Source: Pristiophorus japonicus (lineage: Eukaryota). From it: a DNA stretch of 64,000 bases. The position numbers were made by a program, and so were the translations under genes. Below the pieces are notes generated by a model. It was not told the DNA's origin. It worked only from the letters and a program-made list of their open reading frames with translations, and searched no databases. Shown in pieces: positions 23,536 to 62,115 of the stretch. The stretch spans positions 1,550,001 through 1,614,000 of the forward strand of contig NC_091991.1 in the NCBI RefSeq assembly GCF_044704955.1, written 5' to 3'. How positions within the stretch are numbered: position 1 is the stretch's first letter; each line of letters starts with the position of its first letter.

Positions 23536-24300
23536 CTCAGCGGCGGGAGAGGACAGAGAGGGGGATCGGGGCCTGCAGCGGGACCCGCCGCTCGGGGGCT
23601 GAGAGCGGGTGCCGGGCCGGGCCGGGCCGGGTTGCGCGGGGCGATGCCGGGCTCTCTCCCTCTCTCTGTCTCCGGCCTCAGCGCCACGGAACAAAGGGGC
23701 CGCCCACCCTCAGTGGCAGGGGCGGCGCGCGGCCCGACTGCACCAACTCCCCGCACCACAGAACGCGGGGGGGGGGGGAGAGAGAGAGAGAAGGGATAAC
23801 TAGAGGCTAGATTCCAAAGATCCAACACCAACCTGCGCTAAAATGAATATAATTGTATTACTAATTCCCAATGTGTGAACACACCTGTACTAACTGTTGT
23901 AAAGGTGAGATTATTAATGTTTAGTGTCCCTCTCCCCCCCCCCCAGTGTTGGTATGTTCTCAGGGGATTTGAACCGGCGGAACGTTCCATTGCCCAAGGT
24001 TTCCCGCCGGCTGGGTGGCGGGCGGTGTGCGGGAGCGGGCTCGGGCTCGGGCTCTGGGGGATGCGCCGCCCGGCCGCCCGCCTGCCCCACAAGGTACGCG
24101 GTTGTTGTGTATAATTTGCCCAGGGGCGGGCGGGAGCCGTCAGACGGCGGAACGAATGTGGCGCTGTTATGCCGGGTGCCGGGGGACGGGTGTGACTGAT
24201 GCACGCTCCGGGTGGCTGAAGGTTGAAGTGAGGCCCAGGGAGGCGGTGAGTGTGGGCCCCGGGCTGCGGGGGGCGGGGGGCCTGTGTCACCTCCCTCCCC

Positions 24301-25619: not shown

Positions 25620-27995
25620 CAGACTGGTGGACTCGTGACAGATTACACTTAATGCAGAGAGGTGTAAAGTGATTAATTTTAGTAGGAAAATTGGGAGAGG
25701 CAATATAAACTATAATGTAGAGGGGGTGCAACAAAGGTTCACTAGATTGATTCCTGGGATAAGAGGGCTGTCCTATGAAGAAATTTTAAGTAGAATGGGC
25801 CTATATTCTATGGAGTTTAGAAGAGCGAGGTCTGATCTAATTGAAATGTATAACATTCTTGGTGGGCTTGACAGGGTAGATGCTGAGAGATTGTTTCCTG
25901 ACTGGAGAGTCTAGAACCAGGGGTCATAGACTCAGAATAGGGGTCAGCCATTTAAGAACATAAGAAATAGTAACAGGAGTAGGCCATTCAGCCCCTCGAG
26001 CCTGCTCCGCCATTCAGTAAGATGATCGCTAATCTTTCACCTCAACTCCACTTTCCTGTACTATCCCCATATCCCTCGATTCCCTTAATATCCAAAAATC
26101 TATCGATCTCTGTCTTGAATATACTCAACGACTGAGCCTCCACAGTCCTCTGGGGTAGAGAATTAAAAGCTACACCACCCTCTGAGTAAAGAAATGTATC
26201 TTCGTCTCAGTCTTAAATGGCTGACCCCTTATTCTGAGACTGACCCTTGGTTCTAGACTCCACAGCCAAGGGACATCCTCGCTGCATCTACCCTATCAAG
26301 CCCTGTAAAATATGTTGTATGTTTCAATGAGATCACCTCTCATTCTTCTAAACTCTAGAGAATATAGGCCTTGTCTACAAAAACTCTCCTCACAGGACAG
26401 TCCTCCCATCCCAGGAATCAGTCTGGTGAACCTTTGTTGCACTCCCTCTATGGCAAGTATATCCTTCCTTGGGTAAGACGACCAAAACTGTCTATAGAAC
26501 TGAGATGAGAAATTTCTTTCCTCAGAGGGTTGTGAATCTTTGGCCTTCTCAATTGCAGAGTGTTGCGGATGCTCAGTTGTTGAGTATATTCAAGACTGAG
26601 ATTGGTAGATTTTTGGGTAATCAAGGGATTTGGGTATAGGGTAAGAAAGTGGAGTTGAGGTAGATCTGGCATGATATTAAATGGCAGAGCAGGCTAATCC
26701 TGCTCATATTTCTTGTTCTATAAACTAAATGGTACAATTGTAAAGAGGGTGCAAGAACAGGGAGACTTGGGGGTGTATGAGATGTTGAGATGGCTGTTTA
26801 AAGAGACACATGGAACCTTGGCCTTAACAATAGAGGCATAGCTGTCAGAAAACACAGGCACCTATTCCCAGCTTGTCCGTTTATTAATGGTTCTTGTCTG
26901 AATAAACAAGTACCAAACTCCAGACGCGATATGAGAAAATATAGAGGCACAGAGTACAAATACTAAACTTTTATAAAACACTCGTTTGGCTCCAGCTGGA
27001 GTATTGTTGCCAATTATGAGCACCACATTTTAGGAAGGATGTCAAGGCCTCGGAGAAGGTGCAGAAGGTGTTGAGTAGAATGGTTCCAGGGATGAAAGAT
27101 TTCAGTAACATGGAGAGACTAGAGACCCAGGTTGTTCTCCTTGGAGCAGAGAAGGGAAATTTTATAGGTGTTCAAAATCTTGAAGGCTTTGATAGTGTAA
27201 ATAAGGAAAAACTTTCCAGTGCCAGAGGGGTCGGTAACCAGAAGAGACAGATTTAAGGCGATTGGCAAAAGAATCAGGCGACATGAGGAAACAAACTTTT
27301 TACGCAGCGAGTTTTGATCTGGAATGAACTGCCTGAAAGGGTGGTGGAAGCAGATTCAATAATTAAAAAGGAAATGGATAAATACTTGAAAAGGAGGTTC
27401 ACTAGATTGATTCTGGAGATGAGGGGGTTGACTTATGAAGATAGGTTGAGTAGGTTGGGACTATACTCATTGGAGTTCAGAAGAATGAGAGGTGATCTTA
27501 TTGAAACCTATGATAATGAGGGGGCTCGACAAGGTTAATGCAGAGAGGATATTTCCACTCAGGGGAAACTAAAACTAGGGGACATAGTCTCAGAATAAGG
27601 GGCCGCCCATTTAAAACTGAGATGAGGAGGAATTTCTTCTGAGGGTTGTAAATCTGTGGAATTCTCTGCCCCAGAGAGCTGTGGAGGCTGGGTCATTGAA
27701 TATATTTAAGGTGGTGATGGTCAGATATTTGAGCGATAAGGGAGTAAAGGGTTATGGGGAGCAGGCAGGGAAGTGGAACTGGGTCCATGATCAGATCAGC
27801 TATGATCTTATTGAATGGCGGAGCAGGCTCAATGGGCCTAATGGCCTAATCCTGCTCCTATTTCTTACGTTCTGAAACATTTGCAGGGCTATGGGGAAAG
27901 AGCAGGGGAGTGGGACTAACTGGATCGCTCTTTCAAAGAGCTGGCACAGGCATGATGGGCTGAATGGACTCCTGTGCTGTATCATATCTATGATG
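25620..27995. mobile_element. Nest of CR1 3' fragments in both orientations
   Basis: Plus-strand pieces at 25700-25955/26500-26720 and 27390-27870, and a minus-strand piece at 25955-26495, each interrupting another copy. Confidence 0.8.
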
Positions 27996-29839: not shown

Positions 29840-30290
29840 AGCATCGAATCACTGACCACACTCGACCAGCTCCGTTGGGCGGGCCACATTGTTCGAATGC
29901 CCGACACGAGACACCCAAAGGAAGTGCTCTACTTAGAACTCCTACACGGCAAGCGAGCCCCAGGTGGGCAGAGGAAACGTTACAAGGACATTCTCAAAGC
30001 CTCCTTGATAAAATGCAACATCCCCACCGACACTTGGGAGTCCCTGGCCAAAGACTGCCTTAAGTGGAGAAAGTGCATCCGGGAGGGCGCTGAGCACCTT
30101 GAGTCTTGTCGCCAAGAGCGTGCAGAAAGCGTGTGGCAAACCAGTCCCACCCACCCTTTCCTTCAACCACTGTCTGTCCCACCTGTGACAGAGACTGTGA
30201 TTCCCCCATTGGACTGTTCAGACACCTAAGAACTCACTTTTAGAGTGGAAGCAAGTCTTCCTCGATCCCGAAGGACTGCCTATGATGATG
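29840..30290 (+). mobile_element. RTE-clade LINE 3' end
   Basis: MPDTRHPKEVLYLELLHGKRAPGGQRKRYKDILKASL...WRKCIREG; (ATG)n tail. Confidence 0.88.
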
Positions 30291-31007
30291 TGTTGTACAT
30301 ACATTCGACCATTGAAATCCTTCTCAAGAGGAAGCAGCTGCCACTGTTGTCATAACAAAATTATTACTGAATATATTTTGTTACCTACCACCAAATCATA
30401 TATACACACAACTATTGCAGTTGATAGCTTCCTCATTAAAAAGGTATCTATTAAACACATGAGGGGAAAAAGGAATAGAAGGATATACAGACAGGGTTAG
30501 ATCGTGTGGACGGCAGCATAGACCAGTTGGGCCGAATGGCCTGTTTCTGTGCTGTACTTTCTATGTAACTCAAAAGTGCAATGTGAATCAGCTTAGCTGT
30601 TTGTTTCAATACAGCATTATTGTGGTACAGTGGATATATTTGCACTGTTGTGATTTTACTATATCCAATTGATTTTCTATAATCAGTAGAGGTGGTCGGC
30701 TACAGAAATCTGAGAGAACAGAAGAATTAGGAACGGGAGTAGGCCATCTAGCCCCTCGAGCCTGCTCCGCCATTCAACAAGATCATGGCTGATCTGGCCG
30801 TGGACTCAGCTCCACTTACCCGCCCGCTCCCCATAACCCTTAATTCCCTTATTGGTTAAATTGGAGATTACTTTACAGTGCAAATTGCACAATGTTAACC
30901 ACTATGGTGATTCATCATTGGAGTATTCACCTAATACGTAGTGTTATTCAACATTTGTTTCACAGCTAGCAGTACTACTAATTCGGAGACCATTTTTGCA
31001 ACTAAAG

Positions 31008-31115
31008 ATGCCAGCAGGGGTGTCCTGGCCTCGTTACCTAAAGATGCTGGGGACAAGCATTCTGGCAATGTTTGCAGGAGCAGAAGTAGTACACAGGTAC
31101 TATAGACCAGATTTG
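31008..31115 (+). CDS. UQCC6: Complex III assembly factor 6 (BRAWNIN, C12orf73), first coding exon
   Basis: MPAGVSWPRYLKMLGTSILAMFAGAEVVHRYYRPDL; acceptor CACAG ending 30965, donor GTGAGT at 31116; syntenic between TDG and HSP90B1. Confidence 0.95.
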
Positions 31116-31678
31116 GTGAGTGAAAAGTCTTATATATTTTGTTTGCCTCTCAATTCTTGCCCTTAATATTCTTTGGCTGGGGAGGGGTATGTAGGCAACT
31201 TGACTTCAGGTCTCTGGCCCTACTGCTCTTAGCTTACCACTAGGACATGAAGGTTGAGAGCTGACCGTTGTACTCCAACTATTAGCATTTTATTCCTGTT
31301 CCCTTCATTTCTGTAAAGAAATGCTGCAGTGAACTCAGCACATTTTATACCCTTTACATAAACCCATGTTCTCTCCATGGCATAGAAGAAACATCCATGT
31401 GCCACACCTATCAATTCTATTTAAAACGTTCTCCACCCATTAATTTCCATGTTTAAAAACAATGACACCACATACTCATGGGGATAACATTTTCTTTCCC
31501 ATATTGAAGATAAATTTGATGCATTTCTACACCTCAGCCATACAACCATTAATGTGTTTTGTTTCTTTCTTCTCTGTCTTTAGACCTTTTACAAATATGA
31601 ATTAAATAATGTGCATTTAATCCATCCTATACTTTGGTTGTGTCACATTTTTCAATCTGCAAATTGTGGTTCACACTT

Positions 31679-32033
31679 GCATATTTAGGTAACAAGGCCA
31701 GGACGCGCCTGCTGGCATCTTTAATTGCGAAAGTGGTCTCCTAATTAGTAGTACTGCTAGCTGCAAAACAAACATTTGATGACATCAAGTATTAAGTGAA
31801 AACAACTCCAATGATGAATCACCATAGTGGTTAACTTCGTACAATTTGCACTGTAAAGTAATCTCAGATTTTTGTAACCGACCCTTCTACTGATTATAAA
31901 AAATCAATTTAGATCTATTAAAATCACAACAGTGCAAATATATCCACTGTACCATAATAATGCTGTATTGAAGCAAACAGCTAAGTTGGTTCACATTTCA
32001 CTTTTGAATTACATAGAATGTACGTCACAAAAA
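31679..32033 (-). pseudogene. Inverted partial duplicate of the UQCC6 first coding exon and upstream intron
   Basis: Reverse complement aligns to ~30545-31047, except for a later insertion in that arm; reads MPAGASWPCYLNMQV-stop. Confidence 0.88.
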
Positions 32034-32384
32034 AGCGAGTAATTTTATGCTGGGTTTGTCTACCCTGGGGCTAATTTTTTAAAATACCTTTTACATTATA
32101 GTTGTTCTCGGTAATTTACAAGTAGCTACCGATATCTAGAAAGCCAAAGGAGATCTGCTAGTGTAATATTTGAAAGATGTAAATGCAGATTGTGCCTACT
32201 CGTAAGTTAGTTCCACGGGAGCAATCTTTCATGTGTGAGTACACTGTGTTTCAGCAGCCTTCTCGTGAGCATCAAATCAAGCCCACTTACATCCTTAATC
32301 GATAATCACACTTACACTTTTCAGCAAGAGGCATTAGATACTGAGTCGGAACCCTAGTTGATTTTGGTCCTAGCCTAAAAGGGG

Positions 32385-43473: not shown

Positions 43474-43569
43474 AGTATACCAGAAATTCCACCTAAACCA
43501 GGCGAGCTTAAAACAGAACTGCTGGGCCTGACAGACCCACTGCAAACTCATAATTCTAAACAACACTGA
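43474..43569 (+). CDS. UQCC6: UQCC6 second (last) coding exon
   Basis: Acceptor TTTTATTTTAG; SIPEIPPKPGELKTELLGLTDPLQTHNSKQH-TGA; phase 0 with the previous exon, total 67 aa; AATAAA at 43783-43788. Confidence 0.95.
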   Translation, partial: SIPEIPPKPGELKTELLGLTDPLQTHNSKQH

Positions 43570-45515
43570 CGGAATGTGGACAGAAGATTCAAATGCTCCA
43601 TAAAGCCCATTGGACAGCTACTTGTTTAATATAATTAAAATTGTAACATTATTTTGGCACTTATTTAAAAATATAAATTGCAACTTTTTTTTCTGTATTT
43701 GCTTCCAACATTCTTTGCTTTACTAAGCAGCTCTAAAGCTGGCACATCAAAGCCATTTCTATATAAAGGTAAAAACAGGATAAATAAACTGGAATTCTTG
43801 CACACCTAGTGGCTAAATTTAGAATAGCAGAACCATAGCATCCATCTTGACTTGTATTAAGAAAAAAAATGAAGAAATGAGTACTTTTGGAAGTCAAAAT
43901 TTTTTTTTAACCTTCATATGAAGGTGTTTGTACTGGACATCCAGAAATTGAAGCCTAGTGGTGCAGCTATTGAGACAAGAGAAATAGTAGTGGTATACAC
44001 ACATGTCCAAGATGATCTTTGAAACTAAAAGTAACCCATGAGTGCAGGCACCATGTAATTCGAGTGACACTTTATGTAGGCACCATCATTGCTGCTTGGA
44101 ATGAGAAACATGGTTTTGGGAAAGATTGTAGCTTTGCAAGAAGAAAATGGTCACTAAATTGCATTAGGCTCGAATGGGTATTTCTGCTCGAGAACTCTTG
44201 CCAATTTCATTAGGGTAACCTAAATATGGCGAGCTAACCAGTATTTAGAATAGACCTAGGGAAGAGGAGCTCCACAACACATCTCTACGTCAGGTAATTT
44301 ATTTTTGTATAGTAATTACTGCAAATAAATTGAACTGAACTCAAGCATGTTTTCATTTGTTGTTCAAAGTCACTAATTACAACACACCAGATTACCTAAT
44401 GGGCATCACTTGTCATGAATCAGTTTGGCTTTTGGCAACATCTGACTCAGCAAGGTAGGCAGACTAGTAGTTGGCCAACCTCTACCCTGGAACACCTAGA
44501 CCTAACTGGTGGCCAAGCTAATTTTGCTGGTTTACAAGTTTCATTAGCATCTAGTTAAAGCTATACCAGCTTGGAGCATAGTGCAAATAAAGCTTACCTC
44601 ATGCAACCAATGACTCGTCAAGTGGGCTGGACACTATTTTACCATGTACCCCCATTTATGGCTCCAAGGGTTGTCTTACAAGTGCCAGAATCTAAGTGGA
44701 GCCTTGAATGGAGCTAAGGGAATATATGTTTACAAGTCAAAAGCAAGAATTAAAATTGCAATCATGAATTCATCTACAGAATTGGTCAAATTCTGAAACC
44801 CTGGACTAGCAACTGTTGCAGAAATCCAGGTGAAAACCAAACAGCTACTTCTGTAGAGCTAGAGGAAAGGTAGCAGCACACATTTTACTCTAGTATGTGA
44901 AGTAAGAGGCAGCTGAGGATAGGAAAGACTCGAGTTTGTGAGACCTTTCAACCCACAAGGTACCACTGAAAACATCCAGAGCTAGTTAATTATGCTAGAT
45001 GGCTTGTGCTGTCAAGGCAGCAAACATTTAGCCTAATTTGTAACCAGAGGATTTAAGGTAATTCACAAAAGGAACTTAAACCCAGCAAGTTGTCATGAAA
45101 GCAGATTCAATAGTAACATTCAAAAAAAGAATTGGATAAAGGGTATAAAAGCCAGCAAAGGCATGATGGATCGAATGGCTTCCATGATAATTAAAGCAAC
45201 GGGTTAGGAACATTCAGCACTGAACCTTGAAGTTAGGATTTTAAAATTGAGCATCAAGACAGACTAGAAATTAGAACAAAATCCCCAAAAATTAATGTAG
45301 AGAAGATTACAGGTTGATGGCGTCAATTGGCTTCTACAAAAAAGAGACAGAGTTGCAAGGCTACTATCCTATTCTTTGGAGAATTTAATTCAACATATTA
45401 AGGCAAAGTTGATCTTTGGAAGAGTTAATTTTTGTACTTCTCCAGCAATTCAGTTTCAACCTATTGCAGCTATCACAATGTAAATGCCAAAAACATGAAC
45501 CAGTTTGTGGAAAAG

Positions 45516-45521
45516 TTTATT
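45516..45521 (-). terminator. HSP90B1 polyadenylation signal
   Basis: AATAAA on the minus strand ~230 nt after the stop, followed by T/GT-rich sequence. Confidence 0.65.
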
Positions 45522-45749
45522 ATGGTTTACATGACCAGTTTCACAAGAAATTGTCATTTTAAATATTACAAATTTACAGTCATTTCACTTCCACAAGGAA
45601 TGTAAATATAACATACAAAACTCCTTTGCCCACCAAGACCTGTTAATAGGGATAAATCTGAATTGTTTTCTTTTCACATCCTGTTCAATGGCTTCATGTC
45701 CCAGTACTTCACTATCCCCATTCTATGTAGATTGTAGTCTATTCATTCC

Positions 45750-45779
45750 TTATAATTCATCCTTTACATCTGTGGATTC
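45750..45779 (-). CDS. HSP90B1: Endoplasmin/GRP94 exon 18 (last)
   Basis: ESTDVKDEL-TAA; KDEL ER-retention signal. Confidence 0.95.
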   Translation of the reverse strand, partial: ESTDVKDEL

Positions 45780-45887
45780 CTGGAATAAGTAGGGGCAAAA
45801 AAAACTTATGCAGCTCCATCCCAGTAATGTACTGAAAGTTAGTGAATTTGTTGCATTGGAGTTATAATGTACACATGCAAGACTCAC

Positions 45888-46004
45888 CTCAGTGTGTTTT
45901 TCTTCGGTTTCATCATCATCTTCTGCATCATTGTCATCAGCATCTGCTTTCACCTCATCTTGTTCTTCAACCTCTTCATCTACAACTTCTTCATATTCTT
46001 CAAC
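45888..46004 (-). CDS. HSP90B1: HSP90B1 exon 17
   Basis: Acidic tail VEEYEEVVDEEVEEQDEVKADADDNDAEDDDETEEKHTE; donor GTGAGT. Confidence 0.92.
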
Positions 46005-46226
46005 CTAAACACAGTACAGCAATTCAGTTTCATTCAAAGTATTAGAATTCAAGATTCCCACAATTTGACTTGCACAATCCTTAATCAACAGGTCTTCTTT
46101 AAAAGGCAATCCAACTCAATTTCTAGAGGAAATTGTAGGTAATCTTGTAACATACTTCCTCTCCACACACCCAGAATATACAGTTTAACATTGTAGAAAA
46201 ATGTATACACAAATTCAATAACGTAC

Positions 46227-46382
46227 CTGTGCATTGAGGTCGATGTTCATGCTTAGACGAAGCATTCTTTCAATTCTATCACCAAATGCTTTAGTGTCTG
46301 GTAATTGGTAACCTGAACGCAGCGTGGCAGTCTCGAGCAACACTACAGCAAGGTCTATAGCAGTCTGATCATCTGCATTTTC
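46227..46382 (-). CDS. HSP90B1: HSP90B1 exon 16
   Basis: [52 protein letters not shown]. Confidence 0.96.
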
Positions 46383-46788
46383 CTAAAGAAACAAATGGAA
46401 AGAGACAAGTGTTAGCCTGCAGCTCAGTTCAGCTCTTGATTTTGAAAAACACTGCCAAGAAAGGAGGCATCAGATGTCCTTCCTTGAAGGGTAGCTTTCA
46501 TGGTTCTCTTCTCCCACCTCACACTCTCCATGGTGTTAGCCCAAAAATGGCCAGATTTACTGAAATCAAATTGACAATGTGCCATGTTGGGATTTGCACT
46601 CTGCTTCTGCTACACAACTGTACCCTAGTAAAGCTGTTTGAACATTTGCATTTTATATCTGTTATTCTTGCTGATAGGCAATTTTGTGTTGTGGCGATTG
46701 AAGTGAACCAAACCTGGTGTCCCACTCATACTTGTGGTAACTGGAAAATCTCCAATATACTGGTAACATGAGTGCCAAATAAACCTAC

Positions 46789-46867
46789 CGTAACTCGCTT
46801 CAGCATCTCCTTGATCAAAGGATGTCTTGGATTAACTTCAAACGTCTTCTTTTGACCAGAATAGTAA
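46789..46867 (-). CDS. HSP90B1: HSP90B1 exon 15
   Basis: [26 protein letters not shown]. Confidence 0.96.
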
Positions 46868-47191
46868 CTGTGGAAGAGTTTATAAACTGATTAATTAGTA
46901 AGAGAACATATTGATCAAATCAGAGCCATTTCTTTTCCTCCAGCACCAACACTAAAGCTCTTGTACCAGCATCCAAATTAAGGTGAAAGGTGGAACTTTT
47001 AGAGTAGCACCATAGATTTTGCAATGCAACACACAATCAATGATTAAGAATTTCACAAGCTAGCACTCAATCTTTGGTCAGCAAGTTACAACATAACTTT
47101 TGATTGTTAAGCAACAAGAATAGAATATGGAGGACACAAGGTGCCCAAAGCCAAGCTTAACTGCATCAAGTAATAATAAAAGCCCAACTTA

Positions 47192-47350
<159 letters not shown>

Positions 47351-47790
47351 TTAAGGTTTCATCCTCCCCTCACATTCTAATCTTTCTAAATATTGAAACT
47401 GATTAAAATATCAAAATTTGTGTAACTCATCTTTTGTTTCACTTTGTTCTGGGCAATAGCCATCTTTTGTAGTTTTGGGAAAGGTTTCTCTTCCTACTGT
47501 TTCTACACACCATCGAGCATGAAGTTACTCCTAGGTGGTACCCACTTACTACAATTAGCACTTGCACATGGCAGGGTTTACTGTGGTAACAATAGCAAGT
47601 TGGCTGTCACAACATTAGGAAATCACTCTTCTGACCTTTCTCCAGTTGTACAGCAGATATATTCAGGCTATTGCAACAAAAATGAACTTCAATACAATAC
47701 TGTACTACATCAGCTATGGAATAATTGGATTCGCCACCCTGTAAAATGTTGAAAATTTGCTACCAAGTTGTGTATTATTCCATCATATAC

Positions 47791-48036
47791 CTTATCTTTC
47801 AGTGCTTTGTCGTTTAGCCAGGTCAAGAGTGGTTCATATTCCTTCTCCAGTGCTTCATGGTTTTCTTTAGCCTTTTCACTTTCATCAAATTTCAGCCCTT
47901 CTTTGGCAACATTCTGGAACCTCTTTCCATCAAACTCCGGCAAAGCTTGGATACAGTATTCATCTACAGGTTCTGTCAGATACAGTACCTCGTAACCCTT
48001 CTTCAAAAGTCGTTCAACAAAGGGAGAAGATTCAAC
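47791..48036 (-). CDS. HSP90B1: HSP90B1 exon 13
   Basis: [47 protein letters not shown]...ALKDK. Confidence 0.97.
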
Positions 48037-48266
48037 CTGGAAAAAGAAAATCCAGTAACTTACTTCATATTGCAAAGCAAAATCTCCATCAGCTTTTATA
48101 CTTCAAACTCAATATATTTATAACACAGCAATGGAGCTCGGTAGTAGTGTTATGTACTTTGCAAAGGAAGAATAAATTACTCTGGAGTGCACCCTATTGA
48201 ATTACAAACTTGGCCTCCTACAGTGCAACACTTAATTATCCCCATCAATGGTATCTGCCATCACAC

Positions 48267-48536
48267 CTCTTGTCTGCTCGCTCCTGCCATGAAGTAGATC
48301 TTATCTTGTTTCTCCTTCATTCTTTCCAAGTACTGCTCCAAACTAGTTGATTTGGAATCATGGTGCGAGGTCTGGAATCGCAGCAACTTAGCCAATCGTG
48401 TTCTATTGGAATGATCCTCAATTACACCCAGCTTGATGTTGGTCCCAAATTCCTTCCAGAAATCGTCTTCATATTTCTCCTCTGCAATCTTCTTGATCAT
48501 GTCCAGAGTTTTGCGTACTAGCTTCTTTCTAATGAC
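48267..48536 (-). CDS. HSP90B1: HSP90B1 exon 12
   Basis: [18 protein letters not shown]...[29 protein letters not shown]...ASRQE. Confidence 0.97.
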
Positions 48537-48868
48537 CTATGAGATAAGTAGGCAAATCAGGAATCCAGTGTAGCAAATGATAGATTAAGCTACTTAAACC
48601 AATACAACCAGCATACAGTATTTTCAATGTCTTGCAGTCATGCAAGTTAGGTTTTCTCCAGCTAGGCAGTAGAGGTGTGACATTGTAACAACCTGTGCAA
48701 GAATAAATCAAACTAAATTCAGTACAGTACTGAATCACACAAGCTACCTCCTTCAAGTCAAGTAAATTGAGTAAGCATCAATTAAAGGCATTAAAAAGAC
48801 TGTACCTCAAGAGTTTTACATCTCACTCAAATGTAATATGTTGCATTATGATAGTCAGCAATACTTCA

Positions 48869-48982
<114 letters not shown>

Positions 48983-49267
48983 TTAAGTGTAAGTTTAATA
49001 TCAAACCGCCACACAAAAAGCAAAAGGTGCAGGTTATTTCCTAGCTCAAAAAGGAAAGCAGTTAAAAAGTACAATCATACAAATTAGACTAGTTTAAAAA
49101 AAAATGTCTACTTGACCAAGACACAAAAACTCTTTAGTCGTCAACAATTTCAACATGCTTTTCAGAAGCTTTCAGTGTAGGGTTTGCACTGCCAGAGCTG
49201 CATGTTATCAGGCAAACAATGTGGATCAAACTATTTTACAACTGACTAATGCATCATCTTGGTATAT

Positions 49268-49800
49268 CATCATCATAGGCAGTCCCTCGAAGTGAGGATA
49301 ACTTGCTTCCACGCCCAAAAGGGATGAGTTCACAGACGTTTGAATGAAGGACCTAATATTTCAGGTCACGAACTACATCCTGAAGGGTGGAAGCTGCCAG
49401 TGTGTGGACTTTAAAAAAAAAACTTGTGGTATCCATTGCACCTCAGCTTGACGGAGCTAGGTCTTGGTCCAATGGCAAGGATTACCCAAGACTAACTCGA
49501 GACCAGCTCTGCCGCACAGACCGAGCGCGCACACATATCGCAGTGTGGGCTGGCCCGTGCTGCCCCTGGGCCCCACTTCTCTCTACGGACTCTTGCCGCT
49601 CCTTCGCCCCTCCTGCTGTGCCTGCCTGCATGGCAATCAGCAACCTGGCTTCGTAGCCATCATCTTCCTGCAGCAGCACACGCTCCCTCCAATGGCTCCC
49701 TGGCCTGCTGATGGTCTTGCAGGCAGGGACTGTGCTGATTTCCGGGCCGCCGCGGTCCTGGCCTGCAAGACCATCAGCAGGCCGGGGCCATTGGAGGGAG
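49268..49800 (-). mobile_element. RTE-related short element with 5' fold-back
   Basis: (ATG)n tail at the left end; TSD CTTGGTATAT at 49258-49267 and 49801-49810. Confidence 0.8.
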
Positions 49801-50017
49801 CTTGGTATATGGGGGGGAAAACAGTGACAGCAATAACATTCTCAGTAACTTAACAGCTGTTTATGATTTATTTGGGTTCAGCTGGCAATGGTTCAGATTG
49901 CTTTGCCTAGAAAAGACAGGGCTTGCAATATAAATGTTGCAAGTTTGAGAAAGCTACAGTTCTGGCCAGTGACCTTATGCACATGCATTAGAGAGTCACA
50001 TTTATGTGAATACTTAC

Positions 50018-50095
50018 TACACCCTTGACGAAATTCAAATATTTTGGCATCATATCATGGAAGTCATCTGTGATGAACACTCTACGCACAAACAA
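50018..50095 (-). CDS. HSP90B1: HSP90B1 exon 10
   Basis: [26 protein letters not shown]. Confidence 0.97.
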
Positions 50096-50590
50096 CTGCA
50101 ACAAGAGGAAATTAGATTAAATGTTACCCAAAGCACACTACTGCTGTTAATACATATACAACCAGAGATGTGCTTAAAGCTGGTAATCATCAAGGAGCCA
50201 TCTTTGCATTCTTGGAAGTAATGATTCATTGCTACACTATCAAAATTTGAATCAATCCAGAAGCACAAAAGCTGAATAGAAACCCAGAAACGAGAGGAGT
50301 AAGTGCAATTTTCCTTTGCTTTAGTCAATCAGGACAGGATGCTAATATCAATACACTAATCTAATCGAATTAGATTAATTTTTATAGGGGGCATGCAGGA
50401 AACCCCTTAGACACAGAGGTTCCTATCCCGCTGATGGAACGGATGCAAACTTGTGCAACATATTTTTCAATTTAGTGACTCTGGTAACTGAACAGTTGAG
50501 GAGCATGTAGCACCTGAACCAAGTATTTCTTTATAAGATAGCAATGCGTGTTGCAGCAATGCAAGTGTGTTTAAAAAAAAAATCAGGTAC

Positions 50591-50728
50591 CTTAATGTAG
50601 TCAGATTTTTTTGAACCATATTCATCAAATAAACCACGGGGTGCAGATTTAGGCACAAACAAGATGGACTTGAATGTGACTTCTCCTTCAGCAGTGAAGT
50701 GGATATGAGCTATTGGGTCATCAGAATC
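50591..50728 (-). CDS. HSP90B1: HSP90B1 exon 9
   Basis: [46 protein letters not shown]. Confidence 0.97.
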
Positions 50729-51060
50729 CTGAAGAAAAAAAAGCTTTTATAAATACCAAGGTAAATGCATTTCAGTATATTATGTCAAAACATTTCGAAG
50801 AGACCCACTACTTCATACTTGCTCTCTGTAGACAGACTGAATGCCATCTTCGGAGCAGCAGCAGCATAAATGTTAGCATAACATTCAGAATGACCCTTCA
50901 GGGTGAAGTAATCTAGGCATTGTGTGTATTTGTCTCATACTAGATTTGGCGAACTGGGAGTCCTCCCAATTGAATACCAGAACAGTCATCAGGAAACCAC
51001 TTGGCAAGCAGCAAATGTTTGGAACGGAGATGATCTCAGATCTTTAAAACAAAATGTTAC

Positions 51061-51177
51061 CTTTGAAAAGGTCTTGTAGAAAGCTGTGTATTCATCCTCT
51101 TCTATTTCTTTAGTTGGTCTTTGCCAGATTGGTTTAATGTCATTCATCAGTTCCCAATCCCACACGGTCTTCTCAAC
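51061..51177 (-). CDS. HSP90B1: HSP90B1 exon 8
   Basis: [39 protein letters not shown]. Confidence 0.97.
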
Positions 51178-51189
51178 CTGCAAGAATTG

Positions 51190-51920
51190 GAAATTATAGC
51201 AGCACAGAAATAGGAATAGGTCATTCAGCCCCTCAAGGCTGTTCCACCTTTTAATTAGATCATGGCTGATCTGTTTAACTGCCACCTTGGTTCCATAACC
51301 CTTCAAAACCTTGCCCAACAAAAATATACCAATCTCAGCTTTCAAATGGTCAACTGACCAAGCCTCAACAACTTTGTGAGGAGTTCCAGGTTTCCACCAC
51401 CTTTTACATGACGTGCTTCCCGACATCACCCCTGAACAGTCTAGCTCTAATTTTAAAGATTGTGCCCCCTTTTCTGGATTCCCCAGCCAGAGAAAATAGT
51501 TTATCTATCTACCCTATTGAATCCTTTAATCATCTTAAAACAGTCCCCCCCCAACCCCCCTCAGGTCAATACAGCCTCCGAAGTGTGGTGCCCAGAACTC
51601 CAATATTTTTTGCATCTTGTCCACTAGAGTTTAGTGATTTCTGTACTGGGACCACCAAATCTCTGCTTGTGCAGTTTCTAGCTTCTCACCATCTTCAAGG
51701 GCCTTGAGTGGATGACCTCACTTTTCCACATCGAACTCCATCCGCTAGAGTTTTGCCCACTCAATCTATAAATGTCCCCATGCAACTTTCTATTCCCGTC
51801 TACGCTTGTTAATCTGCTACCTAACTTAGTGTCATAGCAGACTTCGAGATTATAGCTCTCTATTCTGCGATCCAAGTTATTCAGTGAATAGCCCCAGCTG
51901 AGGGATACCACTAGTCACAT
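51190..51920 (-). mobile_element. Decayed CR1 3' fragment
   Basis: 3' UTR-type AGGAATAGGTCATTCAGCCCCTCAAG and degenerate RT C-terminal sequence. Confidence 0.7.
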
Positions 51921-52380
51921 TCTGTCCCCTACCCCTGAGCAATTCCTTATCCCTAGTCTGTCCCCTACCCCCTGAGCAATTCCTTATCCCTAGTCTGTCT
52001 CCTACCCCCCGAGCAATTCCTTATCCCTTGTCTGTCCCCTACCCCCTGAGCAATTCCTTATCCCTAGTCTGTCCCCTACCTCCTGAGCAATTCCTTATCC
52101 CTAGTCTGTCCCCTACCCCCTGAGCAATTCCTTATCCCTAGTCTGTCTCCTACCCCCTGAGCAATTCCTTATCCCTTGTCTGTCCCCTACCCCCTGAGCA
52201 ATTCCTTATCCCTAGTCTGTCTCCTACCCCCTGAACAATTCCTTATCCCTAGTTTGTCTCCTACCCCCTGAGCAATTCCTTATCCCTAGTCTGTCCCCTA
52301 CCCCCTGAGCAATTCCTTATCCCTAGTCTGTCTCCTACCTCCTGAGCAATTCCTTATCCCTAGTCTGTCTCCTACCCTGT
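51920..52380. repeat. 37-bp minisatellite, about 12 copies
   Basis: Unit CTAGTCTGTC(C/T)CCTACCCCCTGAGCAATTCCTTATCC; period 37 (51953 to 51990). Confidence 0.96.
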
Positions 52381-52453
52381 CTACCTCCCGAGCTATTCCC
52401 GAGCCAAGCCAATTCTTTGAACATAACATTTTATGGCTTGAAAAGGTTCATAC

Positions 52454-52567
52454 CTTTTTAGTTTTTGCCTTCTTTTCTTCCTCTTCCTCTTCAACTGCCG
52501 CCTCATCATCAGTCTCTTCCTTTTCCTTAGTTTCCTCCTCATCCATTGGTTCCTCTACAGTTTCGGT
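52454..52567 (-). CDS. HSP90B1: HSP90B1 exon 7
   Basis: TETVEEPMDEEETKEKEETDDEAAVEEEEEEKKAKTKK (charged linker). Confidence 0.96.
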
Positions 52568-52590
52568 CTATTAAACAGAAGTTTTTGTTA

Positions 52591-52815
<225 letters not shown>

Positions 52816-52999
52816 TTAAAGCACCAAATTATCTGGTCAGGTTAATATCCTAGCAAATCTATAATATTGGCTTCATTAGCCAGTAATAGCAACTACACCC
52901 CCCAATACTTCCAGCCAGCCATTCCCTTCTCTTGCCTTAGTCCATCAAGGAAAGCTCTATGTTCCAAGCCCAAGCACACAACTTGAGTCACTAACTTAC

Positions 53000-53331
53000 G
53001 TGATAGTAGTTCCGCGTCCTAGTGTATTTCCTCGTGGATCCTCTATTATAGAGAACTCATTGGAGTCAGATTCCCAGATGTGCTGTGTACCATTGTTGTG
53101 CTTAGAGGTGACAATAACCTTATCTGCGACTAAGAAAGCAGAATAGAATCCAACACCAAACTGACCAATCAGCTCAGAGGTAGACTGGTCCTCACTTTGC
53201 ATCTCAGTCAGCTTATTTAAGAATTCACTTGTTCCAGACTTTGCAATTGTGCCAAGGTTTTTAATCAGCTCATCCTTAGTCATGCCAATGCCTGTATCTG
53301 TGACATGTAGCATGTTCTTCTCTTTGTCAGC
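53000..53331 (-). CDS. HSP90B1: HSP90B1 exon 5
   Basis: [18 protein letters not shown]...GTIAKSGT...[15 protein letters not shown]...GRGTTIT (GHKL ATPase motifs). Confidence 0.98.
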
Positions 53332-54216
53332 CTAGGGAGAAAGCAAAGTCCTTAACTATAAATAGTGCATCACCAAACCATTACTATATTTTTATCTGCA
53401 CCAGTTCAAGATGATAATTCACTGATCAGGAAACTAAGTTTGATCTTCTGTCTTTCTCGCTATCCTAAGCAATGTTTAGAAACTAAAAAGGGGTCCCCAA
53501 TCACCTTCATGCTACTGGTAGGGTGCATTAAAAACTCAAAACTGTACTGTTCACAGAACATGTTACATGCCACCAAACCTCATCTCCCAGCAAATTATCC
53601 TCCAAGTACCACTAAAACAAATTTAGGCTTTGTAGGCATAATGTGTCAACTAGAAGTATTATGGATGGGAAGAAAAGACAACTCTCGCTATGCAGGTCAA
53701 AAGAGTAGCTCCAGCACACTTAATGCACAAACAGTAATACTGCAATTTTCTTTATGGAGGGTGACTAAGTATAACACCCATATGAAAGTGGCAGAACTCA
53801 GGAGCCAAGCCCTAATCTTACAAGCACACCAAATGTAAATGGCGAGGAACAGAAGAAATAGGAGCAGGAGTTGGCCATCTGGCCCCTCAAGCCTGCTCTG
53901 CCATTCAATAAGATCATGGTTGATCCAATCTTGGCTTCAACTCCACTTCCCTGCCCACTCCTCATAACCCTCGACTCCCAGGAGGCCATATGACACCACT
54001 GAGTGATGGTACACGCTATAATCCCATGCCAGTCTAGATTGTGTGTGCCCAATGTGTCTCTACTGCTTGAGAAAACAGTTGCACTCCAAAGTTAAGACAG
54101 CTAGGGAGTCTTTAGTTTACTAAAGGTCTGATCAAAATCCTGACTAGAGTAAATCATCAGTTAATTCAGCAGAATTTTATTACAATCCAAATCAAATTTA
54201 ATGAATGAAAGCACAC

Positions 54217-54333
54217 CTTTATCTTTATAGTCATCTCTTCTGTGGCTTCGAGTGCACCATCATTTGTTAGAGATATCAACCGAATCTTGTCCAGAGCATC
54301 AGAAGCATTGGAAATCAATTCACGTAGAAATAT
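54217..54333 (-). CDS. HSP90B1: HSP90B1 exon 4
   Basis: [39 protein letters not shown]. Confidence 0.97.
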
Positions 54334-54620
54334 CTGGTAACAACCATAAACATTAAGTTAACATTCTGTATCCAAATATATATTTAGCTTAAAATGCATA
54401 TGCACTGACTGGTATTTATGAACTTGACACTAGTATCCAGCTGTTGCAAACTTCAAATGTTACTAATCTGCTGTATTATAATGCACTACTTGCCTTGTTT
54501 ATCAGGACACCACAGCTATTATCAGGGAATAATGGACACAAGTCTAAGCCAAGTACCTTGAAGTCAACTTCAGAAACTGCAAAACAGCAGGGTGAAGTTC
54601 ATTTAAAAATAAAAACTCAC

Positions 54621-54762
54621 CTCTTTGTTTTTGTAAAGAGAATTAATGATTAACTTCATCATTCTGTTAACCTCTGCTTGGAACAGAAACTTTTCAGCCT
54701 TTTCCCTAATTTCCTTAACTTGAGCAGGATTCAATCCATCTAACTGGATAGCTTCTTCCTCC
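54621..54762 (-). CDS. HSP90B1: HSP90B1 exon 3
   Basis: [47 protein letters not shown]. Confidence 0.97.
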
Positions 54763-55678
54763 CTACAAAAAACACAAGAGGGAGGCAGTTAGATTCAGTT
54801 ATTTGCAACATTTTAGTTTTCAATAGATCAAAATACTTAATATTGCATATTTAAGAGGACAGTATTTCCCATTTCCTGTTCAAAATGACAAAACCACAAA
54901 GACTTCCTTGAAATTTAAGCTTCCGTGGAGTTCACCAGCTCAACTCTCCTTCCCTTCCAATTCCAGCATCCAGGATTGGGTCCATTTGTTTGGAGTTTGA
55001 CTGGCCTAGGTGCTGATCTGGAGCTATGTGATTATGAAACTAAGATACTGATCAAGTGTAGTGCATACTATAAAGATGTTTTTGCCAAGGTTACATGGCT
55101 GGAGATCAGCTCCAAGGTCAGTCTGAATTCTAGCCATTAAAATGAAAAAATTCTCACTAAACTCTGAAATATGGAAAGTGCACACTAGTGGAATTAAGCC
55201 AAATGGCACAATGTCAAACAAACAGCAGACAACGTTCCCGACTAATGGATTTGTAGCTAGATACTATAGTAGTAGTATACTGCCCAAAAACTTTCCTTCT
55301 CCTTTGATGCTATTGAGGTCATGCAAGAACATGTGAATAGTATTCTCATTACAAAAGTCCAAGAGGTATACGGATACCAAGTGATCTTTGTTTCCATCAG
55401 TGTATTGCTCAAGTGTTAAGTGCATTGCACAAACCACCAAAATTATAGTATCATCCATCTTGTTCTCAAGATGTGGACAACATTGCCCATCCTTGAATCA
55501 ATTAAGTGTGGCACTGGAGTCACATTATCCCCTTTCCTTTACAGACCTTACTTGGTACAATCCTGCAGCTTTCATGGTCATTTTCTAGTAGCAGACAAAT
55601 TCACAGATAAATTGAACTTGATAACCCCAGATTGCTAGTTTCGCACCACAACCACTAGAATATAGCCACCACCAATAC

Positions 55679-55766
55679 CTTTTAACAACTTCATCGTCTG
55701 TTCGGGATCCATCCCTGCTTTTGCCCAGATCTTCCTCTATCGTCTCATCTTCTGCTCTAACGAAAG
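55679..55766 (-). CDS. HSP90B1: HSP90B1 exon 2
   Basis: [28 protein letters not shown]; phase 1 to 2. Confidence 0.95.
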
Positions 55767-56089
55767 CTGGAAAAGAGAAGGGCAGTTGTTAAAAGCATCT
55801 GGCAGTAAGTCACCCATCAGGAACACCCTTAAGAATGAACCCACACAGTAACAGATTTCTAAAAACATGGAACAACCTTCCTCCCAAGTTCAAGTGACAT
55901 TGTTGGGGGGGGGGGCAGATCCCTGAAAAGAGGGAGGTGTAACTGGAATCCGAGATTTAACGCTCAGGAGCCACCAGAGCAGGGAGGAGCGACTCACTTC
56001 CCGACTCCCCTCCCCCTCGATGGTAACCAACTGGCCCATGGGTCAGCCTGGGGACAGGATTGGTGGGGAATATGGAAGGGGGAGAATAA

Positions 56090-57262
56090 CGTGGGAGACG
56101 GGATCTGGGGGGGGGGGGGGGGGCAACAGATAGGATGGGGGAGGGGGAAAAAACAGTGAGGGGGCAGTGATTGGAGGGACATCGGGGGAACGGCGAGGGG
56201 GGGCAGGGATCGGGGGGAAATGGCCAGGGGGCGGAGATCGGGTGGGGGCAGCGAGGGGAGGGGGAACGGCGAGGGGGAGGAATGGCGAGGGGAATGGCAG
56301 GGGGGGGGGGGGGGAGGCGAGGATCGGGGGGACGTGGACAAGGGAGAGGGGGGGAATGGCGAGGATCAGGGAGAGAAATGGCGAGATGGCAGGGATGGGG
56401 GGGGGGAGAAGAGAGAGAATGGTGAGGGGGCAGGGGAGAGAAAGGCGAAGGGGGGAGTGAAAGGCGAAGGGGGGAGGGATGGCGAGGGAGCAGGGATCGG
56501 GGGGGGGGGGGGGGTGGGAGATGGCGAGGGGGGAATGGCGGGGATCGGATCGGGCGGGGGAATGTCGGGGGTGAGATTGGGATCCGGGGGGGGGGGGGGG
56601 GGGGGTAATGGCAGGGATCGAATGGCGAGCGATCGGGGGAGGAAATGGCAAGGGGGGGCGATCGGGGGGGGGAGGGAAATGGCAGGGGGGGGGCAGGGAT
56701 CGGAGGGAATGGCGGGGGGGCAAGGATCGGGGAGGGAGAATGTCGGGGGGGCGAAGATCGGGGGTGGGGAATGTCGGGGGGGGGCGGGATTGGGATGGGG
56801 GGTAATGGTGGGGATCGAATGGCGAGTGTGGGGGGGGGAAATAGCGAGGGGGGCCGGGGGGGGGAGGGAAATGGCGAGGGGGGCCCGGGGGGGGGGGGAA
56901 ATGGCGAGGGGGGCCGGGGGGGGAAATGGCGAGGGGGGGCCGGGGGGGGAAATGGCGAGGGGGGGCCGGGAATGGCAAGGGGGGGCCGGGAATGGCAAGG
57001 GGGGGCCGGGGGGAATGGCGAGGTGGGCCGGGGGGTTTACCTGAGGTGCGGGGAGATGGCGAGGGGGGGGGAATGGCGAGGGGGGCCGGGGGGGGAAATG
57101 GCGAGGGGGGGCCGGGAATGGCGAGGTGGGCCGGGGGTTTACCTGAGGTGCGGGGAGATGGCGAGGGGCGGGGGGTCAGTGGTGGTAGTAGTTTTGCCTG
57201 GGGCTGGAGGTGGGGGGGGGGGGGGAAAGAGGTTTGCCTTGGGCGGGGGGAGGGAAGGGGAA
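56090..57262. repeat. G-rich degenerate tandem repeat in HSP90B1 intron 1
   Basis: Dozens of AATGGCGAG(G)n and GGATCG(G)n units, with extreme G skew on the plus strand. Confidence 0.92.
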
Positions 57263-57484
57263 CCTATCACCCACCCCACCCCACACATTTCACGGCCTGC
57301 TTGTCCCAGTCAGCAGCGCGGGAGGGGAGGCTGAGGCGGCCGAGACTATGGAACGAAGGAGGAGCGAAGCAAAAGGTCAGGGTGAAGAACGGGCGCAGCG
57401 CGGGCCGGGCCGGGCCGGGCCCCTCACCGGCCGTCGAGCGGCGGGAAGATTCCAGAAAGGCTACGCGGTGCCCCCGGCACTTAC

Positions 57485-60074: not shown

Positions 60075-61179
60075 TATGATTCTATGGCAATGCATTGTCG
60101 CAGAGATGTCAGGATACGCATACATGGAGGTTTGAAGAAGTATAACCAGATCCGGTTTGCAACTGATTAGTGTTTGTAAAGTTGCATCTATGTGAATTGT
60201 ATGGTCATTTAGCACCAGTGAAACAGTTGTGCCATCTTTATCCTAATGAGAAGGCTGAGGAGTGACCTGAGGAGAGTCTTTAAAATTATGAAATGTTTTG
60301 ATAGAGTAGACGCAGAGGGGGTAATTTCCTGGGGATTCAGCTGGTGCGATAGGTGGCAGGTTGGGTGGGGCATATTTGTTTTTGATAGTGTCAACCTGCT
60401 GCCACACTCCTTTACCAAATCTCGAGTCTGTCGGCACTGAGCAGACCTGACACGCAACGGCGAGGAAGGCAATTGAAATCATTAGTAGCTTGTTTACAAC
60501 CACTTAACAACACCTTTTTTCTAGCTTTTTGAATTTGATAGGTGGCCCACCAGTTTCCCGCTGTGCCTAGACCTCATCAGTGAAGCTGAGGCAGGAGATC
60601 ACTTGCCATTGTTTCAGCTGATGAGTTGACTGCTTCAAATGTCAAGTCAAAACTCCCAGCTGATTGAGAAATGTTCCCTTGACCAATAGCTTCTCTAAAC
60701 TGCATTTCCATCACCGATTCATAATGCTGCAAGTCTTTACACAAGTTTCCATCCAGTCTGACCTCATTACCTCTCCCACCATTGATAGATCACTTCTGTC
60801 ATCTCCACTTTGCCTGCCACCTATTCCTTATGTTCTTGTGAAATAAATGGCTTCCAACTGCCCTTTTATAACGTACTTTATTTATGTTATTCTATTTTGG
60901 TAGCTGTGAAGAAGCTGATGTCACCAGCAACATGGAATCCAAATTAGCATGCAAGGAATGCTGAGCCAATTCAAAGAACCAAATTTGTTTCACATCTCTG
61001 ATGGAAGTGCTGCAGAAAGTTGGTGAAAATGTATATAAACAAGATGGCTGTATATAATTCCATTGTACAACTTTAAGGGAAAAGTCGCTAGAATTCTAAG
61101 ATAGAAAGGAACATATTGAAAGTAGTGCTCAATCTTTATATTAAAAGCAACTTGAGGAATTATTTCAAAATTTTCAACA

Positions 61180-61969
61180 ATGCGTACAGTGAGTAAATGT
61201 TTAAAAGCATCGAGCAACTATCTTGCGCGCCAGCCCGATTCTATCCATCGACCACCCATTGAGGTACTTCTCTGTTCAACATTAGAGGATTTTCAAGAGG
61301 AAAGAAATTATTTGGCAAATGAAGTTTTTCCTCTTCTAAGAGAACTCTGTAGTACTAGAAGAAGCTGCTTTAAAGTATTAGATATGCAGTGGACCCCACA
61401 TGAAGGACATTGTCAGCAGAACACAGATTCCCACCAGCTAAAGATTACACTAGACTTCATTACCAAATGCTCACCATTCTTCCTCTGCATGTTAGGTCAG
61501 AAATATGGTGAGTACTGCCCACCGGATGCAGAGTGCCTTCTGACGAGGGAGTCGGACTTTCAAGGTTTATCCCAGGTTGAAAGGAATATATATATCGCAG
61601 CAAAAAATGGCTATTCTTGGATATTGCACGGAGATTATCAAACTTGCAGTCTGTTGGAGCTGGAGATCATAGAAGCAGCTCTTCTAAATTACTCTGAGTT
61701 CAGCTTCTTTTATTTCCGAGATTCCCGCTATGCTGATGATATACTTCTCAATGTCCCGCAGAATGAAACGGGGCTGGTAGAGCGTAAGTATAAAAGTAGA
61801 GATCATTACGAAGAACAGAGGATAAGGAGGCTGAAAGAAAAGATAGTCAATAAAGGATTACGTGTCACATTTTTTAGAACAATAGAAGAACTAGGAGAAG
61901 CAGTCTTAAAAGACTGGAGCGATGTCATTAACAAGTTGTATCCCATGGATTTAGTTCCTTTGTATACAG
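61180..61969 (+). CDS. TTC41: Tetratricopeptide repeat protein 41 (GRP94-neighbouring gene), first coding exon, DUF4062-like domain
   Basis: Open 263-codon frame with CSTLEDFQEERNYL, PFFLCMLGQKYG and SLLELEIIEA motifs; donor CAG|GTACGT at 61969/61970; head-to-head with HSP90B1 as in mammals. Confidence 0.85.
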
Positions 61970-62115
61970 GTACGTGCACCACGTAAGAGGACCAAGTACA
62001 GGTCTATTCTTGGCTTAGCTGTTAACACAATTGGGCACTGCTGTTACTGAAACAACCGCTTATTGAAGGTCAGGGATTGGAATGCACTGAAAGAATATCG
62101 AAAATGGGGTACAGC

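Follow-up and report, generated by a model that had tools for sequence, protein, structure and literature searches.

At recoding sites of the GRIA2 type, bases of an exon pair with an editing-complementary sequence in the downstream intron. Longer inverted copies of nearby DNA are described from human genomes as template-switch or MMBIR inverted duplications ("local 2-jumps" [PMC7025897]; fold-back events [PMC3907307]), in which, as far as the available excerpts of these reports go, a neighboring segment is reversed across a single-copy spacer of 766 to 70,466 bp. One human intragenic inverted duplication, in MANBA, caused exon skipping, and the excerpted account describes a new, fully complementary, exon-containing copy of 13.1 kb within the same gene, a proposed template-switch origin, and a pre-mRNA hairpin (PMC6549551). 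In TBXT, a pair of Alu elements flanks an exon and forms an intramolecular pre-mRNA duplex across it, according to the portions of two reports that were available (PMC10901737; bioRxiv 2025.03.07.642063). Inverted repeats are also hyper-edited by ADAR, giving dense clusters of a single type of change whose partner, in reverse orientation, lies no more than 2 kb away, and 200,171 unique hyper-editing sites are given for elephant shark brain in the accessible part of one survey (PMC5625713).

Here we describe an inverted duplication in the UQCC6 gene of Pristiophorus japonicus, found in a window of 64,000 nucleotides (the whole stretch of DNA analysed), which resembles each of these systems in part. 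We read it, with a probability of roughly 0.7, as a neutral relic of duplication whose antisense transcript is an incidental substrate for ADAR, with exon 2 of the gene spliced into the main mRNA contigs; no function would be needed for the copy. Like the GRIA2-type sequences, it joins exon bases with a downstream intronic inverted copy, but there is no recoding in the mRNA contigs and no sign of conserved pairing, and the edits are intronic and on the other strand. Compared with the human template-switch duplications as excerpted, the UQCC6 copy is small (350 nt), fixed in the germ line, old, and without a terminal deletion. Whereas skipping was shown for the fully complementary MANBA copy, the UQCC6 arms match at 88.6% and inclusion of the exon is dominant; and whereas loop-outs of the TBXT type depend on transposon pairs on either side of an exon, the arm here is not a transposon, overlaps the acceptor, and is accompanied by no skipped isoform that we found. 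The edited cluster (9% of its contig) is as dense and as uniform as those of the hyper-editing survey, so far as its excerpts allow the comparison, but the arm is nonrepetitive, the edited strand is antisense to the host gene, and the depletion of a 5' G was not seen in our small sample. A limited literature check found nothing on this locus or this combination of features, and no title among the matches listed for UQCC6 concerned this structure.

The gene was assigned from its second exon (30966 to 31115, plus strand, ATG at 31008), which matches Pfam PF14990 (DUF4516; E=1e-20), a family that we take to be C12orf73/UQCC6; our literature search found no paper linking DUF4516 to C12orf73, and a PDB search with the exon returned no match. 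The locus is flanked by a TDG-like exon, found by its motifs and lying head-to-head with UQCC6 at about 23.5 kb, and by an HSP90B1-like gene on the minus strand (approximately 45750 to 57400, with its stop at 45750, reading frames ending in KDEL, and a Pfam HSP90 match) that converges on it, and both neighbors fit the identification. Seven sequencing runs from one organism were available, none of them recorded as RNA, and X5, X6, and X7 were treated as RNA on the strength of their spliced contigs alone. In X5 and X6, exon 1 ends with 24061 to 24093 (plus strand, exon start undefined) at a donor at 24093|24094, and not at 24245 as had been supposed; the latter donor resembles the junctions of the retrocopies described below and is absent among the listed contigs. 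X7 joins an alternative upstream exon, with its 3' end at 29942 to 29963 (plus strand), to the same acceptor, and the contigs place the coding part of exon 3 at 43474 to 43569 on the plus strand; loose contig ends at exon 2 match exons 1 and 3. An ATG in exon 1 (24061 to 24093) is in frame with the UQCC6 reading frame and exon 3 in the assembly, but an indel in this GC-rich stretch sets the RNA contigs apart from the assembly, and the frame of that ATG is uncertain.

The right arm of the duplication (31679 to 32033, minus strand) is the reverse complement of 30544 to 30711 together with 30864 to 31047, as the original prediction had proposed, and the by-eye identity of about 85 to 90% becomes 311 of 351 aligned columns (88.6%) by alignment. 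On the left, the distal segment (30544 to 30715, plus strand) lies in intron 1, is identical to the right arm at 150 of 167 positions, and has at its start about 24 nt that belong to the end of an older repeat fragment. The proximal segment (30864 to 31047, plus strand) has the content first ascribed to it, namely, the intron end, the acceptor at 30965|30966, the 42-nt 5' untranslated region, and 40 nt (13 codons) from the ATG, and the right arm carries the copy of the acceptor and, on the minus strand, a 15-codon open reading frame that is dead. Between the arms lie 631 nt (31048 to 31678), close to the 630 nt expected, with the rest of exon 2, its donor, and the start of intron 2; the part from 31116 to 31680 is single copy. 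With a word size of 7, no homology between the arms was found past 30544 or 32033, nor do the sequences next to the junctions prolong it. As a separate observation, a strong plus-strand pyrimidine tract within 31558 to 31689 is followed by an AG at 31583 and by 34 open codons in the frame of exon 2 that end inside the right arm; this AG is used by no contig of the runs examined.

An assembly error had been named as one way in which the structure could prove unreal. Contigs of the DNA runs X3 and X4, which may come from the assembly's own source sample, span 30895 to 31834 and 31806 to beyond 32380 and so bridge both junctions, and the 11% divergence between the arms, together with an insertion specific to one of them, excludes a fold-back artifact. 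That the inversion is an assembly error, or that the edited cluster discussed below is something other than editing, is next to negligible as an explanation.

The view that most of the arm is not transposon derived held up. A search of the 5.9-Gb genome, in which very common words are skipped, gave five matches to the right arm: itself, the two segments of the left arm, and two processed retrocopies. Distant repeats cover 0 to 17% of the arms, which are neither the terminal repeats of a transposon nor two copies of a dispersed repeat. The UQCC6 copy is an inverted copy of nearby single-copy DNA across an unduplicated spacer, the pattern that defines a local templated duplication, and a one-off DNA template switch, or fold-back repair, 631 nt from the source most likely produced it.

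Similar copies occur nearby. Counting inverted pairs of at least 50 nt and 75% identity within 3 kb of each other, we found 186 in 1.864 Mb from three contigs, among which ten alignments at 9 loci were nonrepetitive as judged against this sample only. All 9 fall within the 1.464 Mb that surround the window (G000:C15:1050001-2514000), with none in the 400 kb sampled elsewhere. The inner gap was 502 to 1048 nt at 7 of the 9, versus 45 of 176 repeat pairs (Fisher p=0.002, post hoc), and a scan for clustering of the gaps gave p=0.017, or 0.042 without the UQCC6 locus. One of the other eight loci, about 100 kb away (G000:C15:1679811-1681103; L013:5811-7103), has the same anatomy: an intron end, the acceptor, and the first 35 nt of a TPR-coding exon are copied backwards 1048 nt into the next intron, with 115 of 119 positions identical, and a short forward copy follows the inverted arm. 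By eye, one of the remaining loci looks like a small element's terminal repeats, another is weak, and several border on the end of a repeat. A general enrichment of such copies at acceptors did not emerge, with 1 of the 8 other loci involving a confirmed coding acceptor; two further exon-like candidates among the inverted copies had no Pfam match and no meaningful PDB match.

The left arm is interrupted at 30716 to 30863 (approximate boundaries, minus strand) by a high-copy repeat fragment, presumably the reversed 3' end of a CR1/L2-type LINE, that is not in the right arm. This fragment of about 145 nt has 104 matches in 664 kb, the nearest of them in that sample 96.5% identical, and is surrounded by a short, imperfect target duplication. 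The right arm has kept the empty site and the relatives of the fragment are this close, and the fragment therefore arrived after the duplication; with the fragment present in the left arm only, the duplex consists of two stems and a large bulge. The repeat at 30715 to 30861 also has an inverted partner of its own at 27727 to 27873, 2.8 kb upstream and 82% identical, which could form a competing duplex, and of the 12 inverted alignments at least 80 nt long within the UQCC6 transcription unit, ten involve sequences other than the arms. At the other end of the time scale, the two processed UQCC6 retrocopies with exon junctions (L004, G000:C7:38857880; L005, G000:C8:36702860), both of which contain exon 2, show 12 to 16 differences in 75 to 82 nt from either arm, versus 8 in 82 between the arms, and are therefore older than the duplication and carry no information on how it affects splicing. 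In relative terms only, the order is thus the two retrocopies, the inverted duplication, and the insertion into the left arm. Absolute dating was abandoned, since the divergence between the arms (Kimura two-parameter distance [K2P], 0.125) at the epaulette-shark mutation rate of 7e-10 per generation, the figure in the excerpt available (PMC10587355), translates into about 9e7 generations, which is not credible.

Judged from the pattern of substitutions, the copy looks to be decaying neutrally. Identity between the arms is flat, at 90% in the distal intron, 85% in the proximal intron, 90% in the 5' untranslated region, and 90% in the coding part. Transitions between the arms have led to a G-U wobble in the sense RNA 13 times and to an A-C mismatch 14 times (p=1), and hence neither strand shows a preference for changes that preserve the helix. 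When the retrocopies are taken as outgroups, four of the eight exonic differences fall on the copy, one falls on the gene, and three are ambiguous.

The original prediction had also suggested that the arms could pair in the pre-mRNA and hide the acceptor, and folding agrees with this. The 1.5-kb region has a predicted minimum free energy of -660 kcal/mol with both arms paired, and the cost of opening a 41-nt stretch at the branch point and acceptor is 8 kcal/mol when the RNA ends before about 31720, 20 kcal/mol when it ends at 31765, and 33 kcal/mol when it ends at 31810. At equilibrium, the sense duplex is thus predicted to bury the acceptor of exon 2. Its least complementary part is the branch point and polypyrimidine region (30926 to 30965, plus strand): 11 of the 40 nt before the AG are mismatched, versus 29 of 311 elsewhere (Fisher p=0.002), an excess for which scan tests over four window sizes give p=0.011 to 0.056, the window having been chosen after the alignment had been seen. 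Such an excess is not expected under pure drift, and if anything it points to selection against masking. The copy may accordingly have been mildly harmful by masking an essential acceptor until selection opened the duplex over the branch point and pyrimidine tract, leaving a tolerated hairpin. This is an account we consider rather unlikely. In its favor, the branch-point window is the cheapest of eight 41-nt windows to open (30 versus 51 to 73 kcal/mol), the intragenic inverted duplication of MANBA, in the excerpted report, shows that such a copy can cause skipping (PMC6549551), and BRAWNIN (UQCC6) is described in the accessible part of one study as essential for complex III assembly, its loss being lethal in zebrafish (PMC7066179). 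However, the AG and about 18 nt that follow it sit in a perfect run of 21 nt, the cheapest window would still take about 30 kcal/mol to open, and the changes are not assignable to either arm without an outgroup, so that a single clustered mutation event could explain them.

From masking to a functional switch is a further step, and the contigs argue against it. Exon 2 is included, with 0 differences, in spliced contigs of all three RNA-type runs. A single 622-nt contig of X6 runs through exons 1, 2, and 3, with 87 nt before exon 2 and 383 nt after it, and a 2348-nt contig of X7 passes unbroken from exon 2 into exon 3. A common skip is expected to break inclusion contigs, from the way in which contigs are built, and the unbroken contigs of X6 and X7 thus argue against one; low-level skipping is possible but unsupported, and since contigs drop rare forms, rare or tissue-specific skipping would escape them. 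A skipping switch was not borne out by these contigs. Such a switch, in which the sense pre-mRNA would fold in some tissues or at fast elongation, skip exon 2, and lower UQCC6, is unsupported and appears quite improbable. The very stable predicted duplex over the acceptor and the MANBA and TBXT precedents, as excerpted (PMC6549551; PMC10901737), would allow for it, and the inclusion contig of X5 does start at an unexplained break at the end of exon 1, the other branch of which was not seen. Set against this, besides the unbroken contigs, are the lack of a wobble bias, the later insertion that broke the left arm, and the fact that the only editing found is on the other strand.

On the reading that we prefer, that of a neutral relic, inclusion would follow from the order of synthesis. 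Transcription passes the acceptor about 800 nt before the bases that pair with it and the donor some 560 nt before the start of the right arm; with this lead of 560 to 800 nt over the partner strand, exon definition would probably win the race against folding. Splicing factors can reportedly win such a race against pre-mRNA folding, as Solnick in 1985 and Eperon in 1988 are said to have observed. Given that UQCC6 is essential in zebrafish, a long hairpin able to bury its first coding acceptor is a natural test of splicing versus folding, in which splicing is apparently the faster.

It is of note that the contigs of X5 and X6 extend 383 nt past exon 2, and that the X7 contig continues for 2226 nt, which, if colinear, would bridge the gap between UQCC6 and HSP90B1 (43474 to 45750, to about 45.7 kb). 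Another X5 contig, at 31086 to 31547, continues past the donor of exon 2 into intron 2 and stops 33 nt beyond a GATAAA, with a GU/U-rich tract immediately ahead. Polyadenylation within the intron, upstream of the right arm, would be compatible with this, although contigs cannot show ends.

The arms do appear to form a duplex in RNA, albeit on the opposite strand. One 152-nt contig of X5 (30836 to 30987; depth, 6.8; unspliced across the acceptor) shows 18 differences from the assembly, and all 14 that were classified, the remaining four being unlisted, are T>C on the plus strand, or A>G on the minus strand, within 30885 to 30955. They affect 14 of the 33 T positions in the interior of the contig. 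At 9% of its length, this one contig exceeds the 5% of read length used for hyper-editing in the available part of the survey (PMC5625713), and a reverse-oriented partner of the tract lies within 2 kb. Because a plus-strand T>C is a minus-strand A>G, the edited RNA runs antisense to UQCC6. We consider it likely that this contig records ADAR editing of an antisense RNA folded on the inverted repeat. The evidence is one contig, roughly as long as a single read and possibly derived from one amplified molecule, in one of three runs; the records do not describe the X5 library, and the DNA runs come from another individual.

An allele, a paralogue, or an artifact would be the mundane explanations of the cluster, and the low depth of the single contig and the origin of X5 from a different individual (sample S2) than the DNA runs (sample S1) speak for them. 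Nevertheless, 14 changes of one type fall within 71 nt and none of them occurs in X3 or X4, the genome search found no third copy of 30862 to 30987, and the contig lacks the alleles of the right arm as well as its 3-nt gap. For want of those alleles, the right arm of a sense RNA was also rejected as the source.

Two features bear on the partner strand. The sites that face a C in the duplex between the arms were changed at 2 of 2 positions, versus 11 of 30 at A-U pairs, and a 462-nt X5 contig from the spacer (31086 to 31547) carries a single difference, common to the DNA runs, and is unedited. Together, these features lead us to lean towards intramolecular folding. Pairing in trans with the UQCC6 sense pre-mRNA, which would make the inverted copy irrelevant to the editing, would likewise give T>C on the plus strand, and both strands must be transcribed at the locus; but with the edits confined to the arm, both C-facing sites edited, and the spacer contig, of whichever strand, clean, we regard it as very improbable. 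As to sequence context, edited fractions were 2 of 4, 2 of 8, 5 of 12, and 5 of 9 after a 5' G, C, A, and U, respectively, and a 5' G precedes 2 of the 14 edited sites versus 4 of the 33 available, so that the depletion given as a hallmark of ADAR in the excerpted survey (PMC5625713) was not seen, with n small. No further edited contig was found on 30862 to 32384 at a threshold of 80%, and none from the right arm; no RNA contig covers the right arm or 30580 to 30649, a hole that carries no weight. One additional X5 contig of 364 nt fits 30300 to 30567 and continues with 69 letters that do not fit, which could be a heavily edited left arm or another copy of the repeat.

The neutral reading accounts for these observations if a minus-strand RNA, probably HSP90B1 read-through from 13.7 kb away as the simplest candidate source, extends through both arms, folds on itself, and is then hyper-edited, by what would be ADAR. 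The suggestion of an ADAR substrate that includes coding bases was therefore right about a hyper-edited tract in the left arm, but the strand is antisense, the edited bases are intronic, and the main exon 2 contigs show 0 differences over the coding bases; the other suggestion, a source of endo-siRNAs, is a conjecture. No A>G recoding was seen in the exon 2 mRNA contigs of X5, X6, or X7, contigs from which rare variants are dropped. As the edited strand is the antisense one, the host mRNA would be left untouched, and the locus is a caution that a predicted exon-masking duplex can be real, and even edited, without touching the mRNA of its host.

Three points are nonetheless of note: the antisense strand of the edits, the branch-point window over which the duplex is opened, and the offset of 0.5 to 1 kb common to most nonrepetitive inverted copies in the region. 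They would come together in a two-strand device, in which stress-inducible HSP90B1 read-through folds and is edited while the sense repeat, with its selected opening, tunes inclusion of exon 2 according to polymerase speed. We give this combination very little credence. If true, it would couple endoplasmic reticulum stress to complex III assembly and would exemplify a recurrent type of mutation in this genome, whereby inverted copies placed 0.5 to 1 kb from their source keep seeding hairpins at splice sites. Beyond the converging HSP90 gene, and head-to-head with it, an open frame of 276 codons with a DUF4062 match occupies 61156 to 61986.
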